DNA of 64,000 bases from Alphaproteobacteria bacterium (GTDB lineage: Bacteria; Pseudomonadota; Alphaproteobacteria; RF32; CAG-239): positions 954 through 64,953 of the forward strand of contig JAFUYI010000009.1 of assembly GCA_017470585.1 (NCBI GenBank). The letters are read 5' to 3'. This document shows positions 13,741 through 60,662 of the stretch, one piece after another. The position numbers and the translations under genes are program-made. Each line of letters starts with the position of its first letter. Position 1 is the first letter of the stretch. The notes beneath the pieces are model-generated. The model was not told where the DNA came from. It saw nothing but the letters and a program-made list of their open reading frames with translations, and ran no database searches.

Positions 13741-13749
13741 GAGAAGCCC

Positions 13750-17457: not shown

Positions 17458-18426
17458 TTAAGTTACCTCGGTTACGGCGCGCAAGTTGCCGTCACGGTTG
17501 ATTTGAACCACCCTTAATTTATGGTGCATCTCCTCAATTGTCTTGCGTCTGTCCAAAGTCGGATAGGAGTGCAAAATACGATCAACAAACGCCTCGTACG
17601 CCGCACTGGAACTTTCGGCGTGGATGGTTGCCAAGCAGTTATCGTGACCTGATCCCATCAGCTCCCATAAAGCTCCGGCGTTTCCGGTTGAAATCTCACC
17701 TCCGATAATCGCATCCGGAGTAAAACGAACCACCAAGTCAATAATTCCTTTATAATCGAACTGGTTGGTCTGTCCGGTACGCGACATTACGATATGAACA
17801 CGATTAGGGTGCGGAACCAAAAGTTCCCGCGCATCCTCAATCGTTATAACGCGTTTATGAATGTCCAAAATTTTCAACAAGTTGTTCAAAAAGGTGGTCT
17901 TACCGGTTGCAGTCGCACCGCTGACCAGAATATGATCACCCCTTTTAATACTCAACAGCAGCCGTTCATACGGATCATCGGGGTCTTTAATATTCTTCAA
18001 CGGGTTAATTTGGTGCAATTTTTCACCCTGTTTCAAACCGTAATCCCCCAAACCGAACGCCACATCATCGCTATGAACACGGATAGCTATAGCAACACCG
18101 CCGGTAATATCGCCTTCATCGTACATCACGTTTTTACCGCAGATTGCCGAAAAACGATGTTCCCCGGGAATAGTGGCATAAACCACCGGCGTTCCCGAAA
18201 CCGGATCAAACGGCAGTTCATAGGTATTGGCAACGATATAAAGTAAATCAGTCAAGTACTCCTTGCTTAATTTTTCATCTTTATACATCACCCACGGATA
18301 CGCCCTTTTGCCGCGCAGTCGGAGCCATACCTGCCCGGAGCGGTTAATGGCAACCTCTTCAATGCCTTCTTGGTTGTACCAGTATGCCAACGGGCGAAGA
18401 ACCGATTCCAATACTTCAAAACTCAT
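17458..18426 (-). CDS. virB11: T4SS ATPase VirB11/TrbB family
   Basis: 322 aa; Walker A SGATATGKTTFLN, Walker B/His box; T2SS-E/VirB11 family. Confidence 0.9.
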   Translation of the reverse strand: MSFEVLESVLRPLAYWYNQEGIEEVAINRSGQVWLRLRGKRAYPWVMYKDEKLSKEYLTDLLYIVANTYELPFDPVSGTPVVYATIPGEHRFSAICGKNVMYDEGDITGGVAIAIRVHSDDVAFGLGDYGLKQGEKLHQINPLKNIKDPDDPYERLLLSIKRGDHILVSGATATGKTTFLNNLLKILDIHKRVITIEDARELLVPHPNRVHIVMSRTGQTNQFDYKGIIDLVVRFTPDAIIGGEISTGNAGALWELMGSGHDNCLATIHAESSSAAYEAFVDRILHSYPTLDRRKTIEEMHHKLRVVQINRDGNLRAVTEVT

Positions 18427-18438
18427 ACTTTCTCACTC

Positions 18439-21400
18439 CTAGAACAGTTGCGGAACATCACTGCTGCCCGAAGACACACCGGACGAACGATTGGTTGTTA
18501 CGACGCCGGTACTCGGCGGAGGCGGAGGTGTTGCGCCGACGGCGGGTTTAGCTCCTCCCGAGGTCGCCGTATCATCTACCAAAGCCATTGCCGGCTGGGC
18601 ATCAGTTGAATCACCCTCATATACTACCGAAGATGAACCGCCGCCCTTGCCGAAGTTAGCCTTACGGTTAGCCTCATCGGCAGCACGCTGATTAGAGGTC
18701 TTTTTATCGTCAATCAAGACATCTTTATATTCTTCGTTGTCCGAACCGTCTGCGGCATTATCGGCTGTGCGCAGCCACAAATCAACTTTCGGGTAAACGA
18801 TAATGCGTGTCCCCGCCGGAATAAAGGTAATTGCACGGATATTTGAGCGGTCGGCCAAAATCTGGTTGAACATCGCTTTGGTATCATCCAAAAATCCTTC
18901 GCGGGCATCGTTCATTGCCTGTTGCTTTGAGGTTTCGTTTTCCGAATCCGAATTTTCATCAGTTGAGAACAAAATCGCCATACCGTTATTAGCCAAAGAA
19001 GTGGCAAACGGCATTGCATATTTTTTGACCAACTGGCGATCCAAATATCCCAGCACGCCGCCGCGTCCCTGTGCGTCGCCGGATTGCGCCGAACTGATGT
19101 CAAACATTACACCGTTGGGCATAATCAAACGATCCCATTGAATGGCAATACGCGCCGAGGCGGAAGCATCTTCGGCTCCAGAACCGCCGCCGCAGGAGCC
19201 TAGCAATCGGCTGCCCGCCGGAATAATTACGTTACGCCCGTCTTCGGCATAAACATTGCGCTCCACAAACGCCGTAACCGGAACTTCGTGTTCGGTGTCA
19301 ATCGAGCGGGCAATAACTGCCGGTATCGGCTTATCCGCCAAAATCATCATATCCATATCAACCGGCAGTGTGGAGATAACTTTTTTAACTCCCCAATCTT
19401 TCTGTTTGCCGTCAAAGGCTTCGCGGCTGTATGAAGTGCTGATCTTTCCGACTTCCATATTCTGCCGTCTTACACCTTGCGCAGCTGATAATGCTGCCGA
19501 ACGCTGCACATCATATCTTTCGCCGGGACCGAATCCGCCGCCGGGGCCTAAATTGCCGGGACCGTCTCCGGTGCCGTATGCACCGCCCTCACCGAATGTT
19601 CCGGCGGGAACGAAAATCTCTCCTTTGTCCGCTCCTTTTGCCGACTCCTCAATACCGATAAGAGAGCCTTGGTCATCAACCACCAAGCCGTCCGGCAACA
19701 ATTTTCCCAAAACTTTGCCCGACTTATTGATAACACTGCCGTCCTCCAAAATATCACCCAGATACTCGCCGTCCGGAGTAAGCGCAATATTTACCGAGCG
19801 TTTATAATCTTTTTCCTGAACTTTGATTGTTCCCACCTCGGGCAGCTTTTGTTCTACAACCGTGGGTTTTTCATACCAATCAAGTTTGGTATTGCCGATA
19901 ATCTGACCGTCATGGCTGACTGCCGAACCGTCCTGATTGAGCATACCGATAAAGTTGCCCTTGGCATCGACAATCTTGTTATCCGAACCGACATAACCTA
20001 TCACATTGCCTTCGGCATCATAAATAGGTCTTCTTTTTTCGGCTTCATAAAACTGCAAAGGCTTGGCGGTTGCAATAATCTGCCCGTCGGTTGCCTCAAT
20101 ATCGCCGGCAACCCCTAATGTACCTATTTGTTCGCCGCTTTTAGCAATTACCTTGCCGTCAAGGTTAAGCTCGCCTATTACCTCGTTTTGCTTGTTGCGG
20201 ATAAAGAAATCACGGTTGCCGCGGGCAAACATTTTAGAAGAATTATCAACGGCAAAGCCCTTTATCATTTTGCCGATACGCTGATTGGTAAATGAAATAA
20301 TACTGCCGTCTGAAGCAATGTAGCCAACCGCATTGTGTTCGTTGTTGTACATATACATATCATATAAGGCAAAGCCTATCGCATTACTGCCGGAGTTGAC
20401 ATTACCGTCAAAATCAACCGTTCCGAGCTTTTGACCGCGTCCGTCAATTACTTCACCTTGTTCATTGACAAGCCCCATGTACTTATTATTGTTATCAAAG
20501 GCATAACGATACTTAAACACCATTCCCGCCGCAGTTCCGGTTCTGGAATTAACCACATCATCAGGGGTGGCATAGCCGATATTCTGTCCGCTTTGGTTTA
20601 CCACACTGCCATCAATCAATGTACGTCCGATAATTTTGGAATCAAAATCAATAACCGGAAAAGTCTGCATCACAACTCCGATGAGTGCGCCTTGTTTATT
20701 GTGCAGACGGTTCTGCCAATCAACGCACCCTAAACTCTCTCCGGAATAATTTATCACTTTACCTTTGGAGCTGACCATACCGACAGTCTGCCCGCCGAAA
20801 TCCGTAACGGATCCCGGAACAATCGCAAAACCGACCACATTGCCGCCCTCGGAAATAACTTGCCGATTGGGTAAAACAATTCCCATGGACACTTCACGAT
20901 AATTTTTAACATCACCGCCGGGGGTTACGGTACCGATAAAATCACAGCGACCGTTAATAACAGGCATCAAACCCAGAACTTCTCCTATGCCTTCTCCGGC
21001 ATTATCCAAAACTATGCCTTGGGAATTTACCCTTCCGGCAACCGCTGCGCCCGCATCATAAATCAACCCTTGATTATCGGCATAGCCCAAGAGCATTCCG
21101 TCATAAGAAACCGCCGTTTTAGCTTGCAAAGCATATCCGATAACCGGCATATATGCACCTGCGGCAGTAGAAACCACACTGCCATCAGGCAAAATCTTGG
21201 CCAAGGGTTTTAAGTCTTGACTTAAAACCTGATTGCCATCGGCCAAAACGCCAAGACTGCCTCCGCGGAAATTAACCGCATACATCGGGTTCACACTGCC
21301 GCCGGAAAGTTTATTGTTCTTATCAATATCAAATCCGTATTGTGTCAATCGTCCGGATTGAACAGCACCGCGGTTGGTTATTTCCCCGTTGGGAGAAATT

Positions 21401-22755
21401 GCCCCGATAACCGTTCCGTTAAGAGAATAAATACCGCCAAGAGCAACCGTGTTACCGTCAATTCCTCCTTCGGGACTATAGACATATCCGAACGGAGAAA
21501 CAATCCTCTTTTCATCACTTTTACTCAAAACCGAGTTAATTCCCGTAACCCCCAACGGTTTGTTGTTGTCATCAACCACAACTTTGCTTTCCAAGGTGGC
21601 TCCGATTACCTTTCCGGAGCTGTTAAGGGCAAAATCTCCTCTCATAATTCCCAAAGGTGTGCCGTTGGGCAAAATCACCTGTCCGTTTTTAAGCGCGTGC
21701 GCCCGCAAAGCCCCCCGATAGTCAAAAATCGGACCGGAGGCAATAACTTTGCCTATTTGCTTGCCGTCGGCATCAAAAATCACATTCCACGGACCTATGC
21801 GCCCTACGATATTACGCCCGCGGGCAATTTTTCCCTCCGGCATAATGCGTCCCAAATATTTACCGGAAGAATCGGCGGCAGTAGCGGCAATATCTGCCAT
21901 AAATCCGATTGTATTGCCTCCGGTATCGGCAATACTGCCATCAATCTGCAAATACCCTATCAGTTTTTCGTTATTGATAACCTCGCCGTTATAAGTAACC
22001 AAACCGATATATTTTCCCGATATATCAAAAGCATAACCTGATTTAACTATACTTCCGATTACCTTATCGGCTTCATCATAAGCAAAACCGTTGGCCTTAA
22101 TGAAACCTATCTGTCTGCCTTCAAAATCGGTAACTTTTCCGCCCGGAGAAACACTGCCGATAAAACGCCCGACCGCATCAATAACCATTTTCGAGGAAAT
22201 TAACCGCCCCTCTAAAATAAAATCATTACCGGAACGTTTATAAGCATAGCCGTCCGGAGAAACAAAACCTATGGTCTGTCCTTGGAGGTTGGCATACATT
22301 CCATCTCCGGTCAAACGCCCTACTGTCTGCCCGTTATCGTCATAAATCAAGCCCGGAAACAAAACCGAACCCAAGATTTCAAATCTGTCATCAACCACCA
22401 AACCGTTAGGCAGAACTTTACCGATAATTTTTCCGGTTGAAAGGCGAACCGTACCGTCATTATTTACTTTACCCAACATACGGTTATCATTGCCAATGGC
22501 AATTCCCCGCGGAATAACACCGCCGATGAGACGACCATCAAAATCCACAATCAAGCTGTCGGCGGTGATATTGCCGATTAACTGATTTTCAAAGCTGACC
22601 ACTTTTCCGTCCGGAATAACCTTTCCGATTAAATCGCCGTTAAAGTCAATGGCCGTAATTTCCTGTGCCATTGCGACCGAAGAGTACAACATCAAAACCG
22701 CCGTTCCTAACAGGCGGGAAATTCTGCCGATTTTGACTTTTAACTTTCCCATCAA
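18439..22755 (-). CDS. virB10: VirB10/TrbI-domain T4SS core protein with ~1000-aa N-terminal tandem-repeat extension
   Basis: 1438 aa. N-terminal signal/TM (LLGTAVLMLYSSVAMA), then about 45 degenerate 20-22-aa repeats (DxxGxxIGxVxxxGxVxD). The C-terminal ~250 aa match the VirB10/TrbI beta-barrel domain (TLPVDMDMMILADKPIPAVIARSIDTEHEVPVTAFVERNVYAEDGRNVIIPAGSRLLGSCGG...IAIQWDRLIMPNGVMFDISS...AITFIPAGTRIIVYP). A Pro-rich C-terminal tail follows. Confidence 0.8.
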   Translation of the reverse strand: MMGKLKVKIGRISRLLGTAVLMLYSSVAMAQEITAIDFNGDLIGKVIPDGKVVSFENQLIGNITADSLIVDFDGRLIGGVIPRGIAIGNDNRMLGKVNNDGTVRLSTGKIIGKVLPNGLVVDDRFEILGSVLFPGLIYDDNGQTVGRLTGDGMYANLQGQTIGFVSPDGYAYKRSGNDFILEGRLISSKMVIDAVGRFIGSVSPGGKVTDFEGRQIGFIKANGFAYDEADKVIGSIVKSGYAFDISGKYIGLVTYNGEVINNEKLIGYLQIDGSIADTGGNTIGFMADIAATAADSSGKYLGRIMPEGKIARGRNIVGRIGPWNVIFDADGKQIGKVIASGPIFDYRGALRAHALKNGQVILPNGTPLGIMRGDFALNSSGKVIGATLESKVVVDDNNKPLGVTGINSVLSKSDEKRIVSPFGYVYSPEGGIDGNTVALGGIYSLNGTVIGAISPNGEITNRGAVQSGRLTQYGFDIDKNNKLSGGSVNPMYAVNFRGGSLGVLADGNQVLSQDLKPLAKILPDGSVVSTAAGAYMPVIGYALQAKTAVSYDGMLLGYADNQGLIYDAGAAVAGRVNSQGIVLDNAGEGIGEVLGLMPVINGRCDFIGTVTPGGDVKNYREVSMGIVLPNRQVISEGGNVVGFAIVPGSVTDFGGQTVGMVSSKGKVINYSGESLGCVDWQNRLHNKQGALIGVVMQTFPVIDFDSKIIGRTLIDGSVVNQSGQNIGYATPDDVVNSRTGTAAGMVFKYRYAFDNNNKYMGLVNEQGEVIDGRGQKLGTVDFDGNVNSGSNAIGFALYDMYMYNNEHNAVGYIASDGSIISFTNQRIGKMIKGFAVDNSSKMFARGNRDFFIRNKQNEVIGELNLDGKVIAKSGEQIGTLGVAGDIEATDGQIIATAKPLQFYEAEKRRPIYDAEGNVIGYVGSDNKIVDAKGNFIGMLNQDGSAVSHDGQIIGNTKLDWYEKPTVVEQKLPEVGTIKVQEKDYKRSVNIALTPDGEYLGDILEDGSVINKSGKVLGKLLPDGLVVDDQGSLIGIEESAKGADKGEIFVPAGTFGEGGAYGTGDGPGNLGPGGGFGPGERYDVQRSAALSAAQGVRRQNMEVGKISTSYSREAFDGKQKDWGVKKVISTLPVDMDMMILADKPIPAVIARSIDTEHEVPVTAFVERNVYAEDGRNVIIPAGSRLLGSCGGGSGAEDASASARIAIQWDRLIMPNGVMFDISSAQSGDAQGRGGVLGYLDRQLVKKYAMPFATSLANNGMAILFSTDENSDSENETSKQQAMNDAREGFLDDTKAMFNQILADRSNIRAITFIPAGTRIIVYPKVDLWLRTADNAADGSDNEEYKDVLIDDKKTSNQRAADEANRKANFGKGGGSSSVVYEGDSTDAQPAMALVDDTATSGGAKPAVGATPPPPPSTGVVTTNRSSGVSSGSSDVPQLF

Positions 22756-25700
22756 TTCCTCCGATTTTTAGCAACTTCCTGCAACGCATATCCGGCAACT
22801 CTCTTATCCAAATTGATAAACGAGCCGTTACTCTTCAGATAGCCGATGACTTTATTTTCGGTATCAATCACCATACCGTTGGCGTTTAATCTTCCGACAT
22901 AACGTCCGGTATTGCTCAATACCGTTGCACCGATTTTATAAATACGTCCCAAAATTCCCTCATTGGCATCAAGAGCCAAATCGGTTGAAAGACTGCGTCC
23001 GACAACCGCGCCGCCACTGTCAACAACCGAACCGTCGGCGGCAATATAGCCGACAACTTTATCTTCGCTGTTAATCACCAAGTCGCCGTCAACCACTTCG
23101 CCGATTAAACGTCCCGAACTGTTCAAAACATTGCCATCCGACAAAGCTCTGCCGATATTGATATTCAAAACATCCAAAACTTCGCCGTCGGGCATAACCG
23201 AACCGATAACTTTACCCGAAAAATCAATCACCGCGCCGCGTTTTAATAAACTCAAATTCTTATCGGTTGAACCGCCCGGAAGAATCGCAGTGATATTCTT
23301 GCCGTTCAAATCAATAACATCCCCCAATGAATTGATATGCCCTTTATAATTGCCCCAAACGTCAACCACGATTTCCTCGCCGATAACTTCGCCGACAATC
23401 GCTGATTTGTTATTCAAAGCCTTGCCGTCCGGAGTACTGCGTCCCACGGTTTTGCCGTCCAAATCAATGATTTTGCCGTCCGAGAGGCTGTAGCCCAAAA
23501 AAGAACCGTCATATCCTATTGCCGCACCGCGTTTAACCACGCCGCCTTTTACAACGCCCTGTTTGTCAAAATAATAACCTTTGGCATCTAAACGCCCCAG
23601 TTTCTCACCGAAACGATTGACAACCTCATTATTATATCCGACCATACCGATGACCTTGCCGGCAAAATCAATGACTTGACCTCGCAAAGCCGTAAATCCC
23701 GGCTTGCGGTTATAAAAGGCTGTTCCGTCCCCGTAAAACTTGCCGGCGGAAACTCCTTTGCCGTCATATACATTGCCGTCCGGGAACAAACGCCCGATAA
23801 CAGAACCTTTGTAATCAACTATTGTCGTCTTGGAAGGCATTGCCACACCGATAATTTTAGAGTTTTCATCAATTACGACATTATGAGCCAAAAGCCGTCC
23901 CGACGACTGCCCGCGGATAGGAACTCTGGCATTGGAATTAACCATATTCAGGAAGTTGCCTTCCAAATCATAAGCGTAAAGATTTTCCAAAACCCTGCCC
24001 AAATACGCGCCTTTTTTATCAAAAACATCTCCGTAAGTACCTACACATCCGACGGCTTGCCCCTGCGGTGATAAAACCAGACCGTTTTCCTCAACTTTGC
24101 CCAAGAAATTGCCGTCATAGGAAACCGCAATCCCCGAACGAGCCACACCGCCGATAATATCGCCTTTTTCATCCAAAACCGTACCATCAGGATTGACACA
24201 TCCGACATAGCTGCCGTTTTGGCGCACGATTCCGTCGGTTTCAACTTCACCGATTTTGGTACATGTATCATCAAAAACCGGTCCCAAAGTTACAACTTCG
24301 CCGATGTATTCTCCGGTATCGTCAATAATCACTCCGTCCGCATTGACTTTGTATTTCGTGGTGATATTTGCGGCCTTAATTGTGCCGTCTTTTTCAAGAT
24401 AGCCGATATTTTTGCATCCCTGTCCTACAACCAATCCTCCGCGGACAAGACGGGCGACAATCGTGGAACCGCTAGGGCTTTTAACCATACCGTTTGACTG
24501 TACGCGTCCGACAATCTGCTTGGCATCGTTTTCAACTGTTCCGTTATTGTTGACTTTACCCAAAACTTTACCCTGCGGAGTAATCGGAATCATCTGTTCT
24601 TGAATCAAACGTCCCAAAACATTCTGCGTATTATTGATAACTTGTCCGTTTTCATCAACATAGCCTATGACATTGCCTTCGGTATCAAAAACTTCTCCGT
24701 CCCGTCCGACATACCCCATAATCTTGCTGTTTTTATCCAGCAAAACATTGGCAAATCCGCCGACTTCGCCGATTTCATTGCCATCATTATCAACAATTTT
24801 TCCCGAGGGCATAAGCTTACCGATGGCATCGCCGTTGAAATTGACCACATTGCCGTTTTCATCGACATATCCCATAACGTTACCGTTTTTATCGTACGCC
24901 AACTGGCGCGACATTAACCCCGCTTGTCCGATAATTTGACCGTTTTCATCAACAATTGTACCGTCATCAAGCATTTTACCGATAATCTGACCGGAAAAAT
25001 CAACTACGTTACCATCTTCATCAACATAGCCGATAATATTGCCGTCCTTGTCATAGGCAAGACGTTTATTTGATCCGCCGTCGAGCTTACCGATAACATT
25101 TCCGAAAGCATCTATTATTGTGCCGTCATCTTTAAGCGAACCGATTTTCTTACCGTTATCACCGAAGACATTACCGTTTTCGTCAACATAGCCCATAACT
25201 TTGCCGTTCTTATCGTATGCCAAACGAAGATTATTGCCCTCGGTTGATTGTTTGGTTTTACCGATTACACGACCGTTTTTATCAACCACCGCTCCATCGG
25301 CACGGACTTTACCTATAACTTTGCCGTCATTGCCGATAACCTGACCGTCTTTGTCAACATAGCCGATAACTTTTCCGTTCTCATCGTATGCCAAGCGCGC
25401 AGCTTTGCTTTTGCCGGTCTTGCCGATTATTTTACCGTTTTCATCAATAATCTTACCATCAGCACGAACCCGTCCGATAATTTCACCATCGCTGCCTATG
25501 ACATTTCCGTTATCGTCAACATAGCCGATAACTTTCCCGTTTTCATCGTATGCCAAGCGAGCGGATTTAGAAGAAGCTTTCTTGGCTTTACCGATTATAT
25601 TTCCGTTTTCATCAATAACATTGCCGTTTTCATCTTTGCGCCCGATTACTTCGCCGTCAAAATTATAAACGTTGCCGTCTTCACCGACATAGCCTATAAT

Positions 25701-29875: not shown

Positions 29876-29876
29876 C

Positions 29877-30605: not shown

Positions 30606-30617
30606 AATTTCAATCCC

Positions 30618-30806
30618 TTAAATAGTTTCAACAAACCAATCCGGCAATGTTTGCGGCAATTCAAGTTGCATACAGGCGCAAGGAGAAAGCTTTAATTCAT
30701 CGGTTGCCTTACCGATTTCAACCGGCTCCGGCTCATAATAGGAACCGAAAATACCGCAACCGGCAAGCAAGGCAACAGCAAGCAACAATATTAACTTTTT
30801 GGTCAT
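30618..30806 (-). CDS. Small lipoprotein, VirB7-like
   Basis: 62 aa; signal with lipobox LLAGC, Cys-containing mature peptide. The position between two virB8 genes and upstream of virB9 is typical for VirB7. Confidence 0.5.
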   Translation of the reverse strand: MTKKLILLLAVALLAGCGIFGSYYEPEPVEIGKATDELKLSPCACMQLELPQTLPDWFVETI

Positions 30807-30903
30807 CAGAATATTCCTTTTAAAACTACAGCGATTCTATTTTAGACTCTTTTTTTATAAAAGTCTAACACTTTTCGCAATAAATTTGCAAATATTGCAA
30901 ATT

Positions 30904-31662: not shown

Positions 31663-31677
31663 TTCCCTGTTATTCTC

Positions 31678-34600: not shown

Positions 34601-35604
34601 CTACCACTGAGAAGAGAGGCCGCTTTCGGAGCTTTTGCATCAACAAACTCACTGCGGATATTGCTTGTCGGAATCACCGCCCGATGTGAAGAAATCGGAG
34701 CCGACGCATTTTTATCCTCAACACTTTCCGCTGCGGTTTTTGCCGCGGAGAACGCTGTATCTATTTTTAACTCTTTTTTCAATTCCTTGGCTGCTTGCGC
34801 CTTGGTTTTAACTTGCGAGGAAATTCCCTTAAACGCGGAATTTTGCATCATTTGGGCAAAGCCTAACCGTTGATGCGACATAATAAGAGAAGTTTTGCCC
34901 GAAGAAGAGCCTTTGGGTGCCGGAATAACCGTTCGCGGCTGACGTAATTGTCTGGCCGCCAAATATTGATTCTGCATTGCCACAAGCTGTTCGGTAATCT
35001 TTAAGATGTCATTGAACTTGCGATTTGCCATATAAGCATTATAAGCAACGGCGTTTTCATCTTCGGGATCGGCGGCATCGCCTCCGCCGGCGGTTGCCTC
35101 CTCACCGAATTTTTCAACATCTTTACGCAGATTTGAAAGTTGCGCCTCAAGCTCAATAATTGAGGTTTTCATCTCAACCAAAGTATCGTAATAAAACTGC
35201 AGAGCTTTCTGCTCATAGGCTTTATTGATACGTTCATCATCGGAGGGATATTGTAAAAATAATTCCCTAAAAGCCTCTTCAACCGCCTCGGCACTGTATA
35301 TGTCAACCGAGGAGCCTTCGTCAAAATCCTTACTGCCCGGGACTTTACTCATAACTTTGGTTAATTTTCCGGCATATTTATCTGCCATCGCTTTAACTTC
35401 AGTAACACCCTTTTTGACTTCCGCAACAACGCCTTCTTCAACGGCGGTAAGCTGTTTCTGTACGGTCTGAACGGCGGAATTGGCATCACCGGAAAAATCA
35501 AACGTTGTTCCCGCTACAAGCTGGGCTCTCGCTTGCGGTGCAACACTCAAAAGCATCACAACCGTTAAGCCTGCCAAATGATTTTTTAATTCGGATATTC
35601 TCAT
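31678..35604 (-). CDS. Large secreted coiled-coil protein (1308 aa), T4SS-operon-encoded; function unknown
   Basis: Signal peptide MRISELKNHLAGLTVVMLLSVAPQARA. No predicted TM helices; long helical and Ser/Ala-rich tracts; several Cys in the C-terminal third. No family recognised. Confidence 0.5.
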   Translation of the reverse strand: MRISELKNHLAGLTVVMLLSVAPQARAQLVAGTTFDFSGDANSAVQTVQKQLTAVEEGVVAEVKKGVTEVKAMADKYAGKLTKVMSKVPGSKDFDEGSSVDIYSAEAVEEAFRELFLQYPSDDERINKAYEQKALQFYYDTLVEMKTSIIELEAQLSNLRKDVEKFGEEATAGGGDAADPEDENAVAYNAYMANRKFNDILKITEQLVAMQNQYLAARQLRQPRTVIPAPKGSSSGKTSLIMSHQRLGFAQMMQNSAFKGISSQVKTKAQAAKELKKELKIDTAFSAAKTAAESVEDKNASAPISSHRAVIPTSNIRSEFVDAKAPKAASLLSGSETQIKALGIIADTQKYVNEAMEAHNLLQRMPTYKDVYTQYRLYTELRAKAVEAIKTSDQCVIQYIGRRYDEPNMVWFGQSTPPKDPGDYDSRKGLSGWAISAYQVANASVGNEFDLDAFGEVEIDTSKDSDRLTEVDYDPVDTSSGSDDDVLANPSRAQAFSDSVREVELLNWQIGRKAAQILVEDQNSQKPIYGKPAHPYPLWNDQRAYYDQYLENKYNNMKNYIDGIEVNLLALEIAKKINSGNPIAVDKKKINAGLALIEDALGGNTSSSSSSTGLLAAKASALASIKAKQAAAILPYKTSNTALNTQLDAWAAMIGDVTQKINTADGERALNESKVENARREIEALNARGTNTSSSTYTMAKLTLEEAGNLQATKITELGQLRAKLKQYEQNRDSVRAKIEANNDKINTLNQKYQEDITAIETEYNDKLQALQDAIDSAPKLAGIYKALKLDDGDVLDMVKKADSLIDRARSCAAGLISDHYEDVMKMSENDELYMTYNNPKIVKMHTDLVGKLKDLPKTCFNHDVAVAIGTFNVGSSGIVSMLTTAFKTTLNKSVCSEYTCDAADEQYFAGLPAKARDFTAPKAPLTAHYPTVRDMVHFDTTDYRNLEKGSDGKLTSTAFLEYGVSQPYVWQLLLSDKAYVERGADLGRILEKGGEVKAYMRGIILPCKVGSYMIDMDNSGKYSIVNTQKQFSAENLQKLKSLQTCKDLTIAGHTVGIGNILETYIIYDRDVKGSVKANAAGEINEPVSSELGMFLRYKKGRLLLNDRPHEGFEKLIAKEEKAQKTGKYELSAEENTYQRAMFTTNQIGDFLHFVDKENQIDKNLTELKGSIDDFVESLRETFGKMGFTLKDNLDLSRDDDYNYVLRKLQERKNTMMGQVQSELSRVNYNDETVKERYDKINNTYKAMIQDSQALVSVTANTKSGSPLTEKIRSEQANQKVIAKARNEGYASIRKEIDEYEQPVCMPY

Positions 35605-36875
35605 TTGTTATCTCCTCCTTCGGTTGCGCTTTGAGCTGTTGCATCCGTACCCGCGGCAGGAGCATTTTTGCGCTCTTGTTCGGCATAATCGGAAATGGAT
35701 TTAAGAGTTTTCTGCAAAGGATCTTTTGAAGCATCGAGCAAGCTCGGATCAAGCGGAGCTTCTTCCTTATATTCCGTTGCCGGCGTAGTTTCAACCTCGT
35801 ATTTATCTCGCGACGGATCAAACTTATAATTATCAAAATTAAAGTTTGAAATCGCCGTGTCGGCATTTATTTTATTAAATCCGCTGTTTGCCAAATCATG
35901 GCTGATGTCCAGTTTAAGCTGTTGCAAGACCAGCTCTGTGTAGTTAATCAATGCTAACATATTCATTTTTTTAAGCTCAATTGCGGCAGCGGTTTTGGCG
36001 GCACTCGAGCCTTCCAAATCCGATGATTTTTCTTCGGAATCCTTGGCTTTTTTATTATCGTTTTCAATATCCATACGAATTATGGCCGTGCGGTTTAAGA
36101 CCGTTGCCATATCTTCCCAGAAAAACGAATAATAAAGTTTACGATAATTCAAAACGACATTGGTTGTAACTTCGGTATCTTCGGAAGGTGAAATCATACT
36201 TACCGTTCCTTTAAGATCCTCGGTCGAGTCATAATTACCGGCAATAGAAGTGATTTTGGTCAATGTTCCTGCGGCACTTTCCAAAAGCTGATCTTTTGCA
36301 TCCTCCAAACTCTTCAGTGTTTTTTCGCTGTCTTCCTTGATTTTAGCCAATTTTTTGGCGCGATCTTCTTTCAGCTTTTCTTTTTTCTTCTGCAGTTTGG
36401 TAATTTTTTTCATATTCTTGGCGGCATGCTCGGGATGAGCAAGAGTATCCTGCTCCAGTTCTTGAATATTTCTGTCAATCTCGGCGATTTTTTTCTCGGA
36501 AGTCTTGGTTTCATTATCGGCATCCTGCGCCGCCTTATTTTGCGCATCGGTTTTCTTTTTATTGACTTTTTTGAGTTTTGAGGCAATACTTCCGACTTCT
36601 TTGAAATCCACATCCTTGTAACTGTCCAAAGTTTTGGAGTAATCATAGAACTCTTTGGCTCCCTTGCCGTATTGAATGGCGGTTTGAATAAAAGTGCTTT
36701 CCTCAATTTTGGCTTGAAGTTTGGCAACTTTGGTTTTAACCGTGGTGATTTTCTTTTGAATCCCCACGCTGATGTCTTTTTTAAACGGAGGCAAAAGGAA
36801 AGCTTGGCTTTCCGCACCGCATAAGCCTATCAAAAGAGTCGCCGCCATTGCTGTTAGTAGAGATTTTTTCATCAC
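35601..36875 (-). CDS. Secreted Lys/Glu-rich coiled-coil protein (424 aa), T4SS-operon-encoded
   Basis: Signal peptide MMKKSLLTAMAATLLIGLCGA; highly charged helical sequence; 4-nt overlap with the downstream gene. Confidence 0.5.
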   Translation of the reverse strand: MMKKSLLTAMAATLLIGLCGAESQAFLLPPFKKDISVGIQKKITTVKTKVAKLQAKIEESTFIQTAIQYGKGAKEFYDYSKTLDSYKDVDFKEVGSIASKLKKVNKKKTDAQNKAAQDADNETKTSEKKIAEIDRNIQELEQDTLAHPEHAAKNMKKITKLQKKKEKLKEDRAKKLAKIKEDSEKTLKSLEDAKDQLLESAAGTLTKITSIAGNYDSTEDLKGTVSMISPSEDTEVTTNVVLNYRKLYYSFFWEDMATVLNRTAIIRMDIENDNKKAKDSEEKSSDLEGSSAAKTAAAIELKKMNMLALINYTELVLQQLKLDISHDLANSGFNKINADTAISNFNFDNYKFDPSRDKYEVETTPATEYKEEAPLDPSLLDASKDPLQKTLKSISDYAEQERKNAPAAGTDATAQSATEGGDNK

Positions 36876-36884
36876 GCGCCTCCT

Positions 36885-37529
36885 TTATTCGTCTTCTTTC
36901 GGCGGCTGCATATTGCGAGCCATAAGCCGTAAAACAAATTCTTTTGCTGATGCCTGCATATCGTTAATACGATTCAGACGGCGTGATGCTTCCGTTGCTT
37001 CTTTAGTGGCTTTTTTTATCATTTCGCGACTGTCTTTGGCATCTCCCGTCGACTCTTCGGGTTTGGCATCTTTGTTTTCTTTTGCCATATTGGTACGCAA
37101 AGTAAATGCGTAGGCATACATACGAGTCAAATACCCTCGAAGCATTTCATCATTAAGGTCTTTATTAGCCTGCGCCGCCTCAATCTGATTGGTTTCCGCA
37201 TTCTGCGGCATGGTAGATTGCACAGCATCCGAAAGTTTTCGCTTGTCTCCCAATGCAGCAGCCAAAGACTTCGGCTCCGTAACCGAAACAGCATCAAAAT
37301 TCAAACCGCTGCTCTCGGCAACTCCGGTTAAAGCTCCGATATCGCCTTGACGTGCAGAATTATAAGTTGATTCAATGGTTTGCAATTTTTGCTCAATAGT
37401 TTGTTTTTTGGCTTGAACATCCTCCAGAAAAGTCAAGGATGTTTCGACAAACTCAAAGTCGGCTCGAGCTTGAGGAATACTGACTATTCCCCATCCGATT
37501 GCCAATATCCACAAAGCTTTCTTCATCAC
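36885..37529 (-). CDS. Secreted helical protein (214 aa), possible VirB5/TrbJ-like minor pilus component
   Basis: Signal peptide MMKKALWILAIGWGIVSIPQARA; size and all-helical character fit VirB5. This is a positional/compositional guess only. Confidence 0.35.
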   Translation of the reverse strand: MMKKALWILAIGWGIVSIPQARADFEFVETSLTFLEDVQAKKQTIEQKLQTIESTYNSARQGDIGALTGVAESSGLNFDAVSVTEPKSLAAALGDKRKLSDAVQSTMPQNAETNQIEAAQANKDLNDEMLRGYLTRMYAYAFTLRTNMAKENKDAKPEESTGDAKDSREMIKKATKEATEASRRLNRINDMQASAKEFVLRLMARNMQPPKEDE

Positions 37530-39223
37530 TTGCCTCCCGCAGTTTCATCCTTCGCACTTTCCAAAACATCGCTCGGAGCAGCACATATTTGCTGAACGCT
37601 GTCCCAGATAATCTGCGATGATATAAGAGTTGACATACGGTTCAAGAGAATCTGGGTTTGTTCATTGCTCATCGCTAAAACCGCAGTATCATCACGGGTA
37701 TCGGTGGAACCGGCACTTGATTCTTCCTGTTCATCCAAGGTTTCATCATAATTGGAAGCCTCGTGCTTACTCCCCGTTGCCTCGGTAAGAAGTGCCAGCA
37801 TGGTGGTATAAATCATTCTTTCGCACTCTTTGCGGCTGTTTAAAGCATCAAACTGATTTTTGGCATTGTTTTCAGCCACAATTTTGTTGATGCAGGCTTT
37901 AATTTTATCAATGTCTTTCAAATCGGCAACACTTATGCCGCAACGTTCCGGAAGCGGAGAAATAAAGGTTCCCTTGGAGTTGTAATTTACCCCTTTGGTA
38001 TCATCATCCGACTGGCTGGCAAATCCCAAATGTTTGGAAAAATAAACCGTATTGCTTGAAAGCCTGTCTTTGAGAACTTTAGCGGGAGAAACTCGAAATC
38101 CTTTTCCTTCAACCGCGGGAGCTAAAGCCCCATCTTCAAGAGATTTAACTTTATTTTGAAGTGCATTTGCTTTTAAATCACCGGCTTTTAAGGCACTTGC
38201 CTTATTAACCTGCTGCGGCTCGGCAGTCAAGCTTACAGCCGCGCCCGCCTTGTTATCAAGAGTTTTCAAGGCCTTATCATTAAAGGCTTTAGGAGCCGCG
38301 GCAACCTCGGCTTTAATATCTGCAGCAGGTGCAACACCGAAAGCTTTTCTCCCTGTGCTTTCTGCCGGAGAGAGAGCCTTACTGTCAACCACATCAAATT
38401 TCTTTAATGTTGTCTTATCGAGAGCTTTTAACATCTCCGGTTTGGCGGAAGCTGTACCAGCCGCGGCAACCGGCACGGCTCCGGCTTGGCTGACAAGTGC
38501 CGAGTTATTCACAGCCCTTCTTCCGTCAACGGCAACCGCTTTATCAAGAGATGAGGCATCAAAACGTGTTGCGGCAACACTCGGAGCGGGCATATTGGCA
38601 AAAGCCGCGACTTCCGTGTCAACTTCCGATTCATCATACATATATCCGGACGAATCGCCCATCTCGGCAATATCGTGCGGCAAAGCCTGTGCGGCTTGCG
38701 CGGCAGCGGCGGCATTCACGCTTCCGAGGGTGGAAACACTATGAGCATTATAATCGGAATCCGATTGTGCGGTATATTCTTCGCCGTAATCGCCTTCCTC
38801 ATAGTCACCGTCTTCATAGTCTTCTTCTTCGCCGCCGGAGGAGCCTTGGTATTTATCCATCAATTCCTGATATTTTGCTTGAGCTTCGGCTTTTTTAGCC
38901 TGCGCCTTATTATAAAGTTCGGTTCCCTCTGCCAAACGTTTTTTTCCGTCAGCAAGAGCTTTTTTAGCATCTTCAAGATTTTTGCCGTATTTCTTTTTAA
39001 ATTTAGCAAAAGTGCCTGCATGATCGCCGACAATCGCATTAAGATTAGTGCCGTTCGTAATGGTTTGTTTAGCCTGTTCAATCTCGGTTGCTCCGTCCGA
39101 AACAATGCTTACGGTGCCGGCAATATTTCCGGGATCCATTGTCACCAAAGCACTTGCCGGAGTAACAATCCCCAGCATAGCGGCGCAAGCCAAAACCATT
39201 TTTGCAAACCTGAAATTCATCAT
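37526..39223 (-). CDS. Secreted low-complexity acidic/Ala-rich protein (565 aa), T4SS-operon-encoded
   Basis: ORF 37526-39253. The likely start is MMNFRFAKMVLACAAMLGIVTPASA at 39223, which has RBS ggaggg. Contains a DYEDGDYEEGDYGEEY acidic repeat and A/V/K-rich tracts. Confidence 0.5.
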   Translation of the reverse strand: MMNFRFAKMVLACAAMLGIVTPASALVTMDPGNIAGTVSIVSDGATEIEQAKQTITNGTNLNAIVGDHAGTFAKFKKKYGKNLEDAKKALADGKKRLAEGTELYNKAQAKKAEAQAKYQELMDKYQGSSGGEEEDYEDGDYEEGDYGEEYTAQSDSDYNAHSVSTLGSVNAAAAAQAAQALPHDIAEMGDSSGYMYDESEVDTEVAAFANMPAPSVAATRFDASSLDKAVAVDGRRAVNNSALVSQAGAVPVAAAGTASAKPEMLKALDKTTLKKFDVVDSKALSPAESTGRKAFGVAPAADIKAEVAAAPKAFNDKALKTLDNKAGAAVSLTAEPQQVNKASALKAGDLKANALQNKVKSLEDGALAPAVEGKGFRVSPAKVLKDRLSSNTVYFSKHLGFASQSDDDTKGVNYNSKGTFISPLPERCGISVADLKDIDKIKACINKIVAENNAKNQFDALNSRKECERMIYTTMLALLTEATGSKHEASNYDETLDEQEESSAGSTDTRDDTAVLAMSNEQTQILLNRMSTLISSQIIWDSVQQICAAPSDVLESAKDETAGGK

Positions 39224-39302
39224 ACCACCCTCCGTTATGAGATTCGTCCTCATAAGCTATGATAACAGAAAAATTTTATTTTATAAACCAATTTTATGCA
39301 AA

Positions 39303-41735
39303 TCAGGCAAGATTTAAATATTTTGTAACAAAGTTTTCTTCACCATACTGCTTAATGAGGTCTTCAACCAATAAAACATTCTTACGGCTTGAGTTATAAA
39401 GCTTCAAATACGGTCCCAATCCGCCTAAATTTACATCCAAAATAACCGATTCGCCGGTTGCCGGACGGGAAAGCAGAATAGCGTACGGAAAATCACGATA
39501 CGATTTACCGAACACGAAGTCAATTTCACGCTGATTCAAGTTCCAGTTGGCATAATCTTCCGGTCTTGCTTGCGGGTTACGGAAGAAGATTACGGTTTGG
39601 CATTGACCGCGGATCACCTCTCCCACACCGAGCGAATCGATAATATTCGGTTGTTGGAAAGCACAAAGATATGCCTGTCTTTTTTTACGTCCTTCTTGTA
39701 AACCGATCATAAAGTAATCCCTGAACATCGGGTGTTTAAGCATCGGTGCGGTTTCATCAATCATAATCAAAGACGGCACACCGGTTTCTCCGGTTTCGGA
39801 TTGAATACGGTGCATAATATAGCTGATAACCGCCGGAGCCAAAGTATCATCTTCAAAAATATGCGTAAAGTCAAACGCCATAAACCGTTTGGTATGCAAA
39901 TCAAGGCTATCGCTGGCGGCGTTAAAAATTTTACCGTACTGATCGGGGTTAACCCAGCGATATAGCTCACGGCGCATATTTCCGGTCGGCGAGAAACAGC
40001 TCTTATAAAGGTTGGACATAACGCGTTCTTCAGGGCGCAGATAATCAAACGCCGTCGTAATAGCGCGGGCAATCTCACGTTCGGAAAGCGCATCATCAAC
40101 CATGGTGATTGATTTCATCCACCGCCGCAGGAAAGCCCTGTTATTCGGTGTCGGAGCGGCATCAAACGGATTTAAGGAAACATTTTTCTCATCACCGTCA
40201 AAACCGATATAGGCACCTCCGACTGCACGAGTAAAAATCTCCGCACCCAAGTGACGGTCAAAGAAAAACACTTTCAAATCTTTGTGGCGCATAGCCTGCC
40301 CTGCCAAGAATGTCAAAAGGGTTGTTTTACCTTGTCCGGTAGGTCCGATAATGCAACAGTGTGCAACGGCAGCATCTTCGGAGGAAACATGGAATTGGAA
40401 ACGATACCCCGAACCGGTGGTTGTGCGGAAAGTCGTAATCGCCCCCGGACCCCAGTCGCATTTATTAAAGCCTTCGGCGGGTTTATCAAACGACACTGCC
40501 GCCGTAACCACACGCGACAAATAGCGATAAGTCCGCGGATAGGTGTCGTATGTCGGAAATTGATTGAAAAACGTTGCTTGTGTAACCCATCCTTCTCTGA
40601 CCGGAGTTACACCGAAAAGGCGGCAAATTCTCTGCACTTCGCTTTCGGCAAATTCGATTTCCGCTTTGCTTTTACCTTTTAAGACCAACGAAAGAGAATA
40701 TTCGGTTAACGCCTGATAGTTGGCATCACTATCCTCAATTGAACTCATCGCATAATTATATTGATCAACAACTTCCTGCGAAAAGCTGGTCATACGCGCC
40801 ATGTTGCGCTGCTGAATTAAAAGCGCGCGCGCCGTGGGGCGGTATATCGGCTTAATATTGTGAAGCATTGTAAGTTCGCAATCAATTGCCAACAACGAAA
40901 CAATCATTGATTCGTCCATATAATCTCCGGGAGAACGAATCCCCATGGTTATGGCAAGAGTTTCCTCATCGCCGGAGAAAAATCTAATCATCCCGTTTTC
41001 ACCGGTAAAATGAATATGATCGGCAGTCAGCATCTCGTTTAATTGCGCCCCCTCGGCATGACCGACTTTAGGATCGGGGGTTGACACCGGCGAACAAATC
41101 CGGCTGAAAATATGAAACGGACTGTCAAGAGGTGAGCTGTCCTCACTTTCAAACATAGCACGCACACCGTATTCGCTTAAAGTAGCCAGCAATGTTTGCG
41201 AGGCGTAATTCAAATCTTTTAATGCCTCGGGACGATCGGGAACCGATATAATTATATAGTGCGAGTTACTGTAAACCCTATCAAGAGTTGACTGCCATGT
41301 ATAAGCAACTTTTTCCAAAATTTTATTATCGAAAGTATTTTCGATAACATCGGCAGGAATCCTCTCGCGCAAAGTTATTACCCGCGCCGTAACCTGCAAA
41401 TCGGACATACTGTCGAGCCAAGATTTCCTTGCCTCGGCCATGGAAACATTCTTTTCCTCCGTGGCAAACGCCAAGTCCAAACCCTCAACCTTAAAAACAC
41501 GAGCAAACGAACCGTTATAGCAACGGATGGTCATGCCGTCGGACATCAGTTTATTAAAAGGGAGAAAATCCGCAACTTTCGACTCGTTTGGCTGCGGCAA
41601 TATCGTTCGCCCGAGTTTGGTAATCCACAACCCGGCAAACGCCGCGGCAGAAATAAAACCCAACAATGTTACGATGACTTCTTTGCTGCTTAAACCCTGC
41701 ACAAAGATGTTAAAAAAATCAAAATCAGGGTGCAA
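39303..41735 (-). CDS. virB4: T4SS ATPase VirB4/TrbE/CagE family
   Basis: 810 aa; Walker A IIGPTGQGKTTLL, Walker B ...LIMIDE; N-terminal membrane-associated region. Confidence 0.9.
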   Translation of the reverse strand: MHPDFDFFNIFVQGLSSKEVIVTLLGFISAAAFAGLWITKLGRTILPQPNESKVADFLPFNKLMSDGMTIRCYNGSFARVFKVEGLDLAFATEEKNVSMAEARKSWLDSMSDLQVTARVITLRERIPADVIENTFDNKILEKVAYTWQSTLDRVYSNSHYIIISVPDRPEALKDLNYASQTLLATLSEYGVRAMFESEDSSPLDSPFHIFSRICSPVSTPDPKVGHAEGAQLNEMLTADHIHFTGENGMIRFFSGDEETLAITMGIRSPGDYMDESMIVSLLAIDCELTMLHNIKPIYRPTARALLIQQRNMARMTSFSQEVVDQYNYAMSSIEDSDANYQALTEYSLSLVLKGKSKAEIEFAESEVQRICRLFGVTPVREGWVTQATFFNQFPTYDTYPRTYRYLSRVVTAAVSFDKPAEGFNKCDWGPGAITTFRTTTGSGYRFQFHVSSEDAAVAHCCIIGPTGQGKTTLLTFLAGQAMRHKDLKVFFFDRHLGAEIFTRAVGGAYIGFDGDEKNVSLNPFDAAPTPNNRAFLRRWMKSITMVDDALSEREIARAITTAFDYLRPEERVMSNLYKSCFSPTGNMRRELYRWVNPDQYGKIFNAASDSLDLHTKRFMAFDFTHIFEDDTLAPAVISYIMHRIQSETGETGVPSLIMIDETAPMLKHPMFRDYFMIGLQEGRKKRQAYLCAFQQPNIIDSLGVGEVIRGQCQTVIFFRNPQARPEDYANWNLNQREIDFVFGKSYRDFPYAILLSRPATGESVILDVNLGGLGPYLKLYNSSRKNVLLVEDLIKQYGEENFVTKYLNLA

Positions 41736-42015
41736 ATTTATTCCCCTTTGTCTTATATAAGTTATTGGTTACCCGGTAGGTTTGTCCGAAAGCCTGAATC
41801 ATATTGGAGATATGCGGTTCTTTGGTACCCCATGCGATAATCACGCAGTGAACGAGAAGAATCGTCATAATAAAGATAAGCGGGTTAACATCAAAAGCAC
41901 CGATTGAGGTAAACATAACCGGAAATTGCATTCCCAAGTTAAGCAACACCGGCAGAAACGGTCCCCACAAAATCTTCGGTGGACTTGCCACTGCTTTTAA
42001 TATCGGTTCTCGCAT
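41725..42015 (-). CDS. virB3: VirB3/TrbD-like small membrane protein
   Basis: ORF 41725-42075. The probable start MREPILKAVASPPKILWGPFLPVLLNLG... is at 42015 with ggagg 5 nt upstream. Two hydrophobic segments; overlaps the virB4 start. Confidence 0.65.
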   Translation of the reverse strand: MREPILKAVASPPKILWGPFLPVLLNLGMQFPVMFTSIGAFDVNPLIFIMTILLVHCVIIAWGTKEPHISNMIQAFGQTYRVTNNLYKTKGNKFAP

Positions 42016-43361: not shown

Positions 43362-43390
43362 CTCAATTTCCTTTCCTTTTGGGGTAAGGC

Positions 43391-43585
43391 TTATTTCAGC
43401 CCCGCCTTCTTCAAAATATTTGTTGCAACTTTGGGATGAACATCGCCCTTATGATACGGAACGGCAATTTTTCCTTCTTTTGTTTCGTGTTCAAATTGGT
43501 AATGACTCCCCTCTGTATTCACTACATACCAACCATCTTTTTTTAATATCTTCATCAGCTTTTCCGCTGTATATCTCACAGGCAT
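43391..43585 (-). CDS. hicA: Type II toxin HicA (intact second copy)
   Basis: Probable start MPVRYTAEKLMKILKKDGWYVVNTEGSHYQFEHETKEGKIAVPYHKGDVHPKVATNILKKAGLK (64 aa) inside the longer ORF 43391-43627. Confidence 0.75.
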   Translation of the reverse strand: MPVRYTAEKLMKILKKDGWYVVNTEGSHYQFEHETKEGKIAVPYHKGDVHPKVATNILKKAGLK

Positions 43586-60626: not shown

Positions 60627-60662
60627 CATCCGAGGGGGATTGTTTTGCGATCCCCCCTGTTT
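60627..60662. terminator. Bidirectional terminator between paralog 9 and comEC
   Basis: gagggggattgttttgcgatcccccc hairpin. Confidence 0.55.

Follow-up and report, generated by a model that had tools for sequence, protein, structure and literature searches.

What kind of machine is assembled from a type IV secretion system (T4SS) locus in which giant repeat proteins and large secreted proteins are encoded among the core genes, and from which VirB6, VirB2 and VirD4 are missing? This question is raised by a minus-strand operon on contig JAFUYI010000009.1 of an Alphaproteobacteria bacterium, of which a stretch of 64,000 nucleotides, referred to below as the window, was analysed. The first-pass annotation of the window had described an atypical VirB-like T4SS operon of thirteen minus-strand open reading frames (ORFs). 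All thirteen are present at the positions claimed, and profile searches of the component proteins bear out the description. The gene order is virB3, virB4, four genes referred to here as X1 to X4, virB8b, a gene for a VirB7-like lipoprotein, virB8a, virB9, a gene for a repeat protein referred to as R1, virB10 and virB11. We conclude that the locus encodes an undescribed, widespread and expanded T4SS, the most distinctive feature of which is a beta-flower-repeat VirB10 that is split into two genes; no description of such a system was found in the searchable literature. The operon and the parts that make up the split protein are the following:

17458-42015, minus strand: T4SS operon, 24.6 kb, thirteen closely spaced ORFs
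22752..28250, minus strand: R1, read as the N-terminal half of a split giant VirB10, 1832 amino acids from a conserved MSKEVL start
18439..22755, minus strand: virB10, read as the C-terminal half, 1438 amino acids
25590..26515, minus strand: tandem 153-bp units (51 amino acids, three hairpins) within R1; Tandem Repeats Finder period 153, 65-79% matches

The 1832-residue repeat protein had been taken for an additional component of the system, an interpretation that we replace, as it is the N-terminal, inner-membrane-anchored half of VirB10. R1 consists of a highly conserved cytoplasmic tail, a transmembrane (TM) helix (residues 22-49), an immunoglobulin (Ig)-like domain of the choice-of-anchor-D/ASH-like type and approximately 1600 residues of 17-residue beta-hairpin repeats, which match the Bflower_2 family with an E-value of 1.8e-144. 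The product of the downstream virB10 gene has a cleavable signal peptide (AMA-QEITAIDFNG), approximately 1000 residues of R1-type repeats and the TrbI barrel (residues 1138-1328), and lacks a TM anchor; it matches TrbI (1e-33), Bflower_2 (2.7e-64) and, in the PDB, ComB10 (1.5e-19). Of 64 orthologues, 55 retain EITAIDF at the mature N-terminus. R1 and VirB10 have a common repeat over about 1000 residues (BLASTP, 9e-81), with a unit of 17 residues, a consensus of roughly xVxxDGxVvDxnGxvIG and a [DNEQ]xxG motif at the hairpin tip. Within R1, residues 435-1178 form 14 tandem units of 50-59 amino acids with three hairpins each. The R1 protein of the window is the longest among the 64 orthologues (1832 amino acids versus a median of about 1200), and together with the 153-bp tandem repeat this suggests a recent repeat expansion in this species. 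A fold model of the repeats (predicted local distance difference test score, pLDDT, of 76; predicted template modelling score, pTM, of 0.37) contains regular beta-hairpins, which may close into flowers or form another assembly.

The origin of this arrangement can be read from relatives in which the two genes are one. When the repeat-free N-terminal region of R1 (residues 8-235) was compared exhaustively by phmmer with 1.84 billion representative proteins, the matches included, besides R1 orthologues, proteins of 1930-2363 amino acids that match the R1 N-terminus over their first ~210 residues. The three of these unsplit giants that were scanned all carry beta-flower repeats along their whole length and a TrbI domain (3.5e-31 to 4.2e-35) at the C-terminus, and the fused protein aligns with R1 from residue ~7 and with the window VirB10 through the TrbI barrel. 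The two unsplit loci that were read come from lineages with 47% and 57% GC and encode four to six signal-peptide proteins, VirB8b, the lipoprotein, VirB8a, VirB9 (with a SPOR domain in locus L102), a giant VirB10 of 2350 or 2152 amino acids and VirB11. Because the unsplit giants join the R1 N-terminus, the repeats and the TrbI barrel in one polypeptide, R1 is the inner-membrane half of a giant VirB10 protein that expanded and was then split, and the virB10 gene encodes its other half. Following the split, the repeat total grew from ~1600 to ~2600 residues. In the clade to which the window belongs, R1 and virB10 are separate genes in all 64 complete loci. R1 is ATGA-coupled to both virB9 and virB10; across loci, the R1-virB10 junction ranges from a 4-nucleotide overlap to a 72-nucleotide gap, and this variable length argues against programmed frameshifting.

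Beta-flowers were discovered in AlphaFold models as recently as 2023 and have no established function (Durairaj et al. 2023, PMC10584680). The window repeats match the corresponding Pfam families (PF21784/PF21785) very strongly. Unlike the small single domains of ~100 amino acids described there (PMC10584680), the repeats studied here form ~2600 hairpin residues within a T4SS scaffold, and the fold thereby gets a first concrete cellular context.

The remaining core genes of the operon are:

41725..42015, minus strand: virB3, 96 amino acids; 11-nucleotide overlap between its 3' end and the start of virB4
39303..41735, minus strand: virB4 ATPase, 810 amino acids
30904..31662, minus strand: virB8b, divergent second VirB8, 252 amino acids; Pfam VirB8 9e-15
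30618..30806, minus strand: VirB7-like lipoprotein, 62 amino acids; LLAGC lipobox and SPCAC motif
29877..30605, minus strand: virB8a, orthologue of the single plasmid VirB8, 242 amino acids; Pfam VirB8 3e-25
28247..29875, minus strand: extended virB9, 538-542 amino acids; Gly-rich insertion and SPOR-like C-terminal domain
17458..18426, minus strand: virB11 ATPase, 322 amino acids; T2SSE 3e-19, TIGR02788 VirB11 3.8e-40

VirB3, VirB4, two VirB8 proteins, VirB11 and an outer-membrane core of VirB7, VirB9 and VirB10 are all encoded, and judged from these profile matches the locus is by its core a member of the VirB/Trw-type T4SS superfamily. VirB4 matches CagE_TrbE_VirB in Pfam (8e-12), TIGR00929 (2.6e-108, under the curated cut-off) and TrwK in the PDB (5e-40). 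It has hundreds of homologues, of which the best 120 are 77-95% identical and the few named ones are metagenome-assembled genomes of gut Alphaproteobacteria/Pseudomonadota. VirB3 has no Pfam match and was assigned by its similarity to the annotated VirB3 of Microvirga pMVF16-3 (8.5e-7) and by position, as it is 69-74% identical to the gene immediately 5' of virB4 in relatives and occupies the same place in all of them. VirB8a matches VirB8 structures in the PDB at 6e-8 (the best entries are 4mei, 2cc3, 4kz1 and 4lso) and the Microvirga VirB8 at 9e-34; VirB8b is 29% identical to VirB8a and is present in all related loci. The lipoprotein, which is 58-90% identical across 80 loci, has homologous lipoproteins in the VirB7 slot of the plasmids from Erythrobacter and Microvirga (6e-12 and 4e-8). 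VirB9 matches CagX (9e-12) and, weakly, SPOR (0.0016, residues 463-540), and SPOR (PF05036) is a precomputed assignment in many of its orthologues; its C-terminal part also matches the Erythrobacter VirB9 (7e-4), a common extension. VirB11 is 79-98% identical in relatives. All VirB matches lie far below the NCBIfam curated cut-offs, so the components of this operon are divergent. The operon was said to be held together mostly by 4-nucleotide overlaps or ATGA coupling, which applies to four of the twelve junctions and is overstated as a majority: one further junction is an 11-nucleotide overlap, five are gaps of 1-15 nucleotides, and the two widest are gaps of 49 and 97 nucleotides.

The nearest sequence relatives point to a plasmid ancestry. 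The closest plasmid VirB4 proteins (35-38% identity) are those of Microvirga sp. VF16, Sphingosinicella sp. BN140058 and Erythrobacter aureus (loci L096, L099 and L097), and the plasmid loci are ordered MobA/MobL, VirB2, VirB3, VirB4, VirB5, a soluble protein of 420-450 amino acids, VirB7 to VirB11 and VirD4, with a DnaB-like helicase after MobA/MobL in Microvirga and Erythrobacter; the annotated layout in Sphingosinicella is the same. The plasmid VirB5 is recognised by Pfam (T4SS, 6.8e-7), and VirB7 is annotated in Microvirga and Erythrobacter. The window operon and these plasmids have in common the order VirB3, VirB4, VirB5 slot, soluble protein in slot 6, VirB7 with the SPCAC motif, VirB8, VirB9, VirB10 and VirB11, a VirB11 that is 39-40% identical, the C-terminal extension of VirB9 and the lack of a polytopic VirB6 in the usual slot. 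Unlike the window, the plasmids carry a relaxase, VirD4, a single VirB8, an adjacent VirB2 and a repeat-free VirB10 of 530-590 amino acids, the N-terminus of which consists, in Microvirga and Erythrobacter, of a TM segment and, after it, an Ig-like region showing a C...C pattern. The window system is, in contrast, chromosomal, with two VirB8 proteins, four slot proteins instead of two and a split repeat VirB10.

VirB6 has been described as highly conserved among all T4SSs (PMC12857230). The absence of VirB6, VirD4 and VirB2 from the operon was noted before and is borne out by our analysis, which found none of them in the contig read past the window ends either. By hydropathy of all ORFs, no polytopic VirB6 is encoded in the operon, and the only polytopic ORFs elsewhere in the window are those of UppP, a MatE-family transporter and ComEC. 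In almost all of ~70 related loci, no polytopic ORF lies between virB4 and virB8b; three loci have isolated, threshold-level hydrophobic segments in this slot, which we regard as noise. In the plasmids, no polytopic VirB6 was found by hydropathy in the corresponding slot of Microvirga or Erythrobacter, nor within 20 kb on each side in the latter, and in Microvirga only a 228-residue protein with three to four TM segments is encoded there. Since the absence of VirB6 is common to the nearest conjugative plasmid systems, it is a property of the clade, and not a peculiarity of this locus; the Microvirga, Erythrobacter and Sphingosinicella loci may represent a VirB6-less T4SS clade. No relaxase, type IV coupling protein (T4CP), VirB1 or VirB6 is encoded in cis. 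VirD4 was found neither in the window and the flanking contig read nor 3' of virB11 in one relative, where the genes are convergent, have no Pfam match (VirD4 and VirB6 included) and encode no polytopic protein. The alternative of canonical virB6, virB2 and virD4 genes lying just outside the window was raised in the first-pass annotation; the ~4 kb and 6.6 kb of contig examined outside the window contain none of them, and no other T4SS, relaxase or integrase genes.

The lack of VirB2 has a different explanation. A tblastn search of the 64-kb window with the VirB2 proteins of relatives found no VirB2, and no flanking contig gene has a TrbC/VirB2 match in Pfam, so that VirB2 is indeed absent at this locus. 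It is not, however, absent as a trait of the system: relatives with 80-88% identical VirB4 proteins carry two TrbC/VirB2 genes immediately 5' of virB3, and most also encode a third VirB2-core protein with a Gly/Asn/Ser-rich C-terminal tail of 200-300 amino acids. In the window, the VirB2 region is occupied instead by a gene of the paralog family discussed below, hicAB and trxB. The HicA/HicB pair (42948-43585, minus strand, beside the paralog gene) sits exactly at the relatives' virB2/type IVb pilus site, which suggests a rearrangement breakpoint, and virB2 is lost from its virB3-adjacent position in this genome by local rearrangement. In loci L084-L089, the VirB2 genes and a type IVb pilus cluster that adjoins them (TcpQ, a secretin, PilO, an ATPase and bundlin/PilS-like pilins) occupy the region ~0.1-10 kb 5' of virB3, the cluster being divergently oriented in four out of five relatives; throughout most of this lineage, the T4SS and the cluster are neighbours. 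Within the window, an isolated HicB-like antitoxin gene (7413-7820, minus strand) likewise lies beside a paralog gene.

Between virB4 and virB8b, the operon encodes four exported proteins:

37526..39220, minus strand: X1, Sec-exported, 564 amino acids; signal peptide only
36885..37529, minus strand: X2, Sec-exported, 214 amino acids; signal peptide only; its start overlaps the X1 stop by 4 nucleotides
35601..36875, minus strand: X3, Sec-exported, best VirB5 candidate, 424 amino acids
31678..35604, minus strand: X4, Sec-exported conserved accessory component, immediately 5' of virB8b, 1308 amino acids

The claim that these four proteins carry signal peptides and are not membrane proteins agrees with Kyte-Doolittle hydropathy, in which the N-terminal signal peptides are the only hydrophobic segments. 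None of them has a significant match in Pfam, NCBIfam, the PDB or PHROG, and no toxin or enzyme domain was detected. The mature N-terminus of X1 carries the motif LVTMDPGNIAGTV, its acidic, low-complexity middle part is variable, and a C-terminal domain with two cysteines is conserved; X1 has a weak DUF4141 match (E 0.005), and its mature N-terminus (DPGNIAGTV) resembles the slot-6 protein of the Erythrobacter plasmid (5.7e-4). X2 has no Pfam, PDB or PHROG match, and both X1 and X2 have a median identity of 35% among orthologues. The C-terminal half of X3 aligns weakly with a profile of three plasmid VirB5 sequences (hhalign probability 73%, E 3e-5, 110 columns), one member of which matches the Pfam T4SS/VirB5 family at 6.8e-7. 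X4, which has no match in the PDB, was detected in 76 of 80 loci and carries conserved blocks, and its central region (~residues 330-560) aligns with the protein directly 5' of virB8b in a distant clade (hhalign probability 96%, E 2.6e-9). Their conserved position, translational coupling and cross-clade homology argue for X4 and X3, at the least, being machine components, and the fast evolution of X1-X3 suggests that these proteins are surface exposed. That the extra ORFs are tied to the T4SS, as had been proposed, is confirmed by a gene order that recurs in ~70 genomes at species level and also in two clades that are more distantly related.

The distribution of the system was determined by scanning one genome per species with a VirB9 alignment and confirming hits by tblastn, and 80 loci were retained. 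A VirB9 relative is encoded in at least 233 species-level genomes. The 80 retained loci were all assembled from gut or rumen metagenomes of humans, ruminants, mice or chickens and are labelled 'uncultured Azospirillum sp.', 'Azospirillum sp. 51_20', 'Candidatus Scatocola faecigallinarum' or 'Alphaproteobacteria bacterium'; we take this gut clade, to which the window belongs, to correspond to GTDB order RF32, family CAG-239. In ~70 loci, the order virB4, X1-X4, virB8b, lipoprotein, virB8a, virB9, R1, virB10, virB11 is identical, with one copy of the system per locus. The median identity to the window proteins is 92% for VirB4, 87% for VirB11, 72% for the lipoprotein, 68% for VirB8a, 65% for VirB9, 58% for VirB8b, 54% for R1, 48% for VirB10, 32-35% for X1-X3 where they are detectable and 28% for X4. 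The conserved order and these contrasts in identity indicate that the system is vertically inherited and functional, and that its parts evolve at very uneven rates. In the window, the operon is flanked by the housekeeping genes accA, accD, uvrB, trxB, leuS-lptE-holA, xseA, uppP and comEC, and virB11 is followed at its 3' side by a convergent paralog gene and then uvrB. The T4SS genes are scattered in some lineages: in locus L100 (JGI 3300033463 contig, 47% GC), the block from the X proteins to virB11 lies between folD and rpsL-rpsG-fusA with no virB3/virB4 upstream, and locus L059 (RUG560) is broken upstream of the VirB7 lipoprotein. Since such scattering occurs, absence in cis is not equivalent to absence from the genome.

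Taking these results together, we favour, with somewhat better than even confidence, the explanation that the operon encodes a chromosomally fixed, vertically inherited and expanded VirB/Trw-type T4SS, which is derived from a plasmid, has a split giant VirB10 and serves as a non-conjugative contact or secretion organelle. The system would descend from the T4SS of alphaproteobacterial MobA/MobL-VirD4 conjugative plasmids, with the loss of the relaxase and coupling protein in cis. VirB8 is duplicated around the VirB7 lipoprotein, and VirB9 carries a SPOR-like, presumably peptidoglycan-binding C-terminus. VirB10 has gained a very long beta-flower array between its membrane-proximal Ig-like domain and the outer-membrane TrbI barrel. 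In the next step, in the clade of the window, the giant protein was cut into two translationally coupled genes, R1 retaining the tail, the inner-membrane anchor and repeats, and the downstream virB10 gaining a Sec signal peptide and retaining repeats and the TrbI barrel. We speculate that the span from the inner to the outer membrane is rebuilt non-covalently through the homologous repeat arrays of R1 and VirB10, and that the repeats and the SPOR-like domain may tie the machine to peptidoglycan. X1-X4 could form periplasmic stalk, pilus-tip or surface parts together with VirB2 pilins, and the organelle might be aimed at host or neighbouring cells, rather than at conjugation.

Several points weigh against this explanation. 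The function proposed for the machine is inferred throughout. VirB6, VirD4 and the VirB2 of this genome are absent in cis and could be encoded elsewhere. The signal peptide of VirB10 was called from sequence features, and the N-terminus of R1 resembles that of the short plasmid VirB10 proteins weakly (hhalign probability 31%, E 5e-4, 135 columns). The likeness of X3 to VirB5 is weak too, at a probability of 73%, and a mutual N-terminal similarity among X1-X4 was rejected as a signal-peptide artefact.

Three other explanations of the locus have to be weighed against these data. X1-X4 could be the cargo and not the machine, that is, the system could be a VirD4-independent two-step exporter similar to the Ptl system, in which X1-X4 cross the inner membrane by Sec, fold in the periplasm and are then pushed across the outer membrane as toxin or adhesin substrates, in the way that Ptl exports pertussis toxin. 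Systems that lack VirD4 and handle Sec-dependent substrates are recognised as a class (PMC12857230), no VirD4 was found in the operon, the flanking contig read or the flank of a relative, all four X genes lie within the operon and specify proteins with Sec signal peptides, and X1-X3 evolve fast, as secreted or exposed proteins often do. We nevertheless consider cargo unlikely, as the cross-clade conservation of X4 beside virB8b and the weak VirB5 likeness of X3 fit machine parts better, VirD4-bearing plasmid systems also encode a soluble secreted protein in that slot, and X1-X4 contain no detectable toxin or enzyme domain. An even less probable possibility is that the T4SS resembles the ComB system and brings environmental DNA across the outer membrane, from where it is passed to ComEC. 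The VirB10 barrel indeed matches ComB10 best (PDB, 1.5e-19; NCBIfam ComB10 1.2e-32 versus VirB10 2e-26), the chromosomal and conserved system has no VirD4 or relaxase in cis, and the window contains comEC (60661-62538). ComB, which is likewise without VirD4, however also lacks VirB11 and VirB5 (PMC12857230), whereas VirB11 is here the second most conserved protein after VirB4; furthermore, VirB4 is nearest to TrwK and the VirB4 proteins of conjugative plasmids, and ComEC is common in bacteria and unlinked to the operon. Both the exporter and the DNA-uptake system are therefore ranked below the plasmid-derived contact or secretion organelle.

The third explanation, an ordinary integrative and conjugative element or integrated plasmid with its relaxase, T4CP and VirB6 just outside the window and with X1-X4 and R1 as unrelated passengers, is largely refuted, and we assign it only a very slight probability. 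It would account for the fact that the nearest sequence relatives are conjugative plasmid systems and for a resolvase and a DNA methylase 6-8 kb away (9100-11447). These observations are outweighed by the housekeeping flanks and the lack of T4SS, relaxase and integrase genes in the contig read, by the occurrence of the system in at least 233 species-level genomes, with ~70 single-copy loci of the same order, which fits vertical inheritance, and by the synteny and translational coupling of X1-X4 and R1 in all loci examined. In addition, R1 is demonstrably half of VirB10.

Our preferred explanation, the plasmid-derived organelle with a split VirB10, can also be compared with other expanded or chromosomal T4SSs. 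The Helicobacter pylori Cag system is likewise an expanded, effector-type system with extra system-specific secreted proteins encoded in its locus, and its VirB10 homologue CagY, which matches the window barrel (1.6e-7 to 6.5e-6), is enlarged several-fold by repeats N-terminal of the TrbI barrel. The CagY repeats are Cys-rich and helical. Unlike the split protein, CagY is one polypeptide, and since the window repeats are 17-residue beta-flower hairpins, the giant VirB10 of the two systems would be comparable by analogy only; no operon protein has a Pfam, NCBIfam or PDB match to CagM, Cag3 or CagT.

Duplication of both VirB8 and VirB7 had been put forward as reminiscent of the rvh systems of the Rickettsiales. 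Two copies of VirB8 are indeed encoded; the VirB7-like gene is single. Similar to rvh, the window system is a chromosomal, vertically inherited P-type system with two divergent VirB8 proteins around VirB7, followed by VirB9, VirB10 and VirB11, and with scattering of its genes. In rvh systems, virB4 is followed by genes for three to five extended polytopic VirB6 paralogues and virB11 by virD4; VirB4 and VirB9 are duplicated, and no VirB5 is known. In contrast, the window system has no VirB6, and hence no proliferation of it, encodes soluble secreted proteins in its place, has no adjacent VirD4 and holds, within the window, one virB4 and one virB9 without the duplicates of the rvh type. As its closest sequence relatives have a single VirB8, the duplication of VirB8 was probably independent of that in rvh; these plasmid relatives are from the Hyphomicrobiales and Sphingomonadales in a comparison that contained no Rickettsiales sequences. 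Beyond the VirB8-VirB7-VirB8 order, we thus regard the resemblance to rvh as superficial. The Ptl system of Bordetella pertussis has in common with the window the lack of a coupling protein in the locus and the presence of Sec-dependent secreted proteins in the operon (PMC12857230). It differs in having VirB2, a polytopic VirB6 (PtlD) and VirB9 and VirB10 proteins of normal size, and the genes for its cargo, a defined AB5 toxin, lie upstream and are not embedded between virB4 and virB8.

The architecture of T4SSs is known chiefly from R388, pKM101, Cag and Dot/Icm, and the new system departs from them in that no polytopic VirB6 is encoded with the machine, here or in the closest plasmid relatives, in that a coupling protein is missing from the locus as well, and in that VirB10 is enlarged four- to six-fold by beta-flower hairpins. 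The split of VirB10 is a natural domain dissection of the subunit that is thought to couple the inner-membrane ATPases to the outer-membrane pore. One might speculate further, as a bold and rather doubtful generalisation, that these systems represent a VirB6-less T4SS family with a stalk of soluble proteins and a non-covalent, two-protein beta-flower scaffold that sits on peptidoglycan via the repeats and the VirB9 SPOR domain. If true, the soluble X1-X4 proteins and their plasmid counterparts replace VirB6 in building the periplasmic stalk. The host lineage comprises uncultured Alphaproteobacteria with small genomes that are common in gut metagenomes of humans, ruminants, mice and chickens. 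Due to its presence in hundreds of species, the strong purifying selection on its ATPases and the fast evolution of its secreted parts, the system is a strong candidate for the main organelle with which this lineage interacts with its host or with other microbes.

Finally, the operon is flanked by members of a paralogous family of secreted proteins, which the first-pass annotation had linked functionally to the T4SS as possible appendage subunits or substrates. The window encodes nine paralogs and the rest of the metagenomic contig at least three, dispersed among housekeeping genes over the whole 81.6 kb, and none is present in the related T4SS loci. As paralogs are found in no related locus, there is no conserved linkage between them and the T4SS, and the proposed functional tie has no support. 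Their role as T4SS appendage subunits is likewise not supported by the predicted fold: a model based on the alignment of all nine sequences (pLDDT 74) shows a core folded as a beta-sandwich and, at the N-terminus, a disordered segment of nearly invariant sequence, so that in this prediction the paralogs look like donor-strand, chaperone-usher-like pilins and not like T4SS pilins. No usher or chaperone gene was found in the window. A gene for a Fic-domain protein (51711-52823, plus strand) lies between two paralog genes, as do a C5 cytosine DNA methylase gene (9100-10830, plus strand; Pfam 4.9e-28) and a serine resolvase/invertase gene beside it (10827-11447, minus strand), which may be left over from a mobile element or represent an invertase for phase variation. 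Immediately upstream of uvrB, a small flagellar cluster (12515-14172, plus strand) encodes a switch protein similar to FliN (FliMN_C 2.3e-13), together with a DUF6468 protein and a small coiled-coil one.

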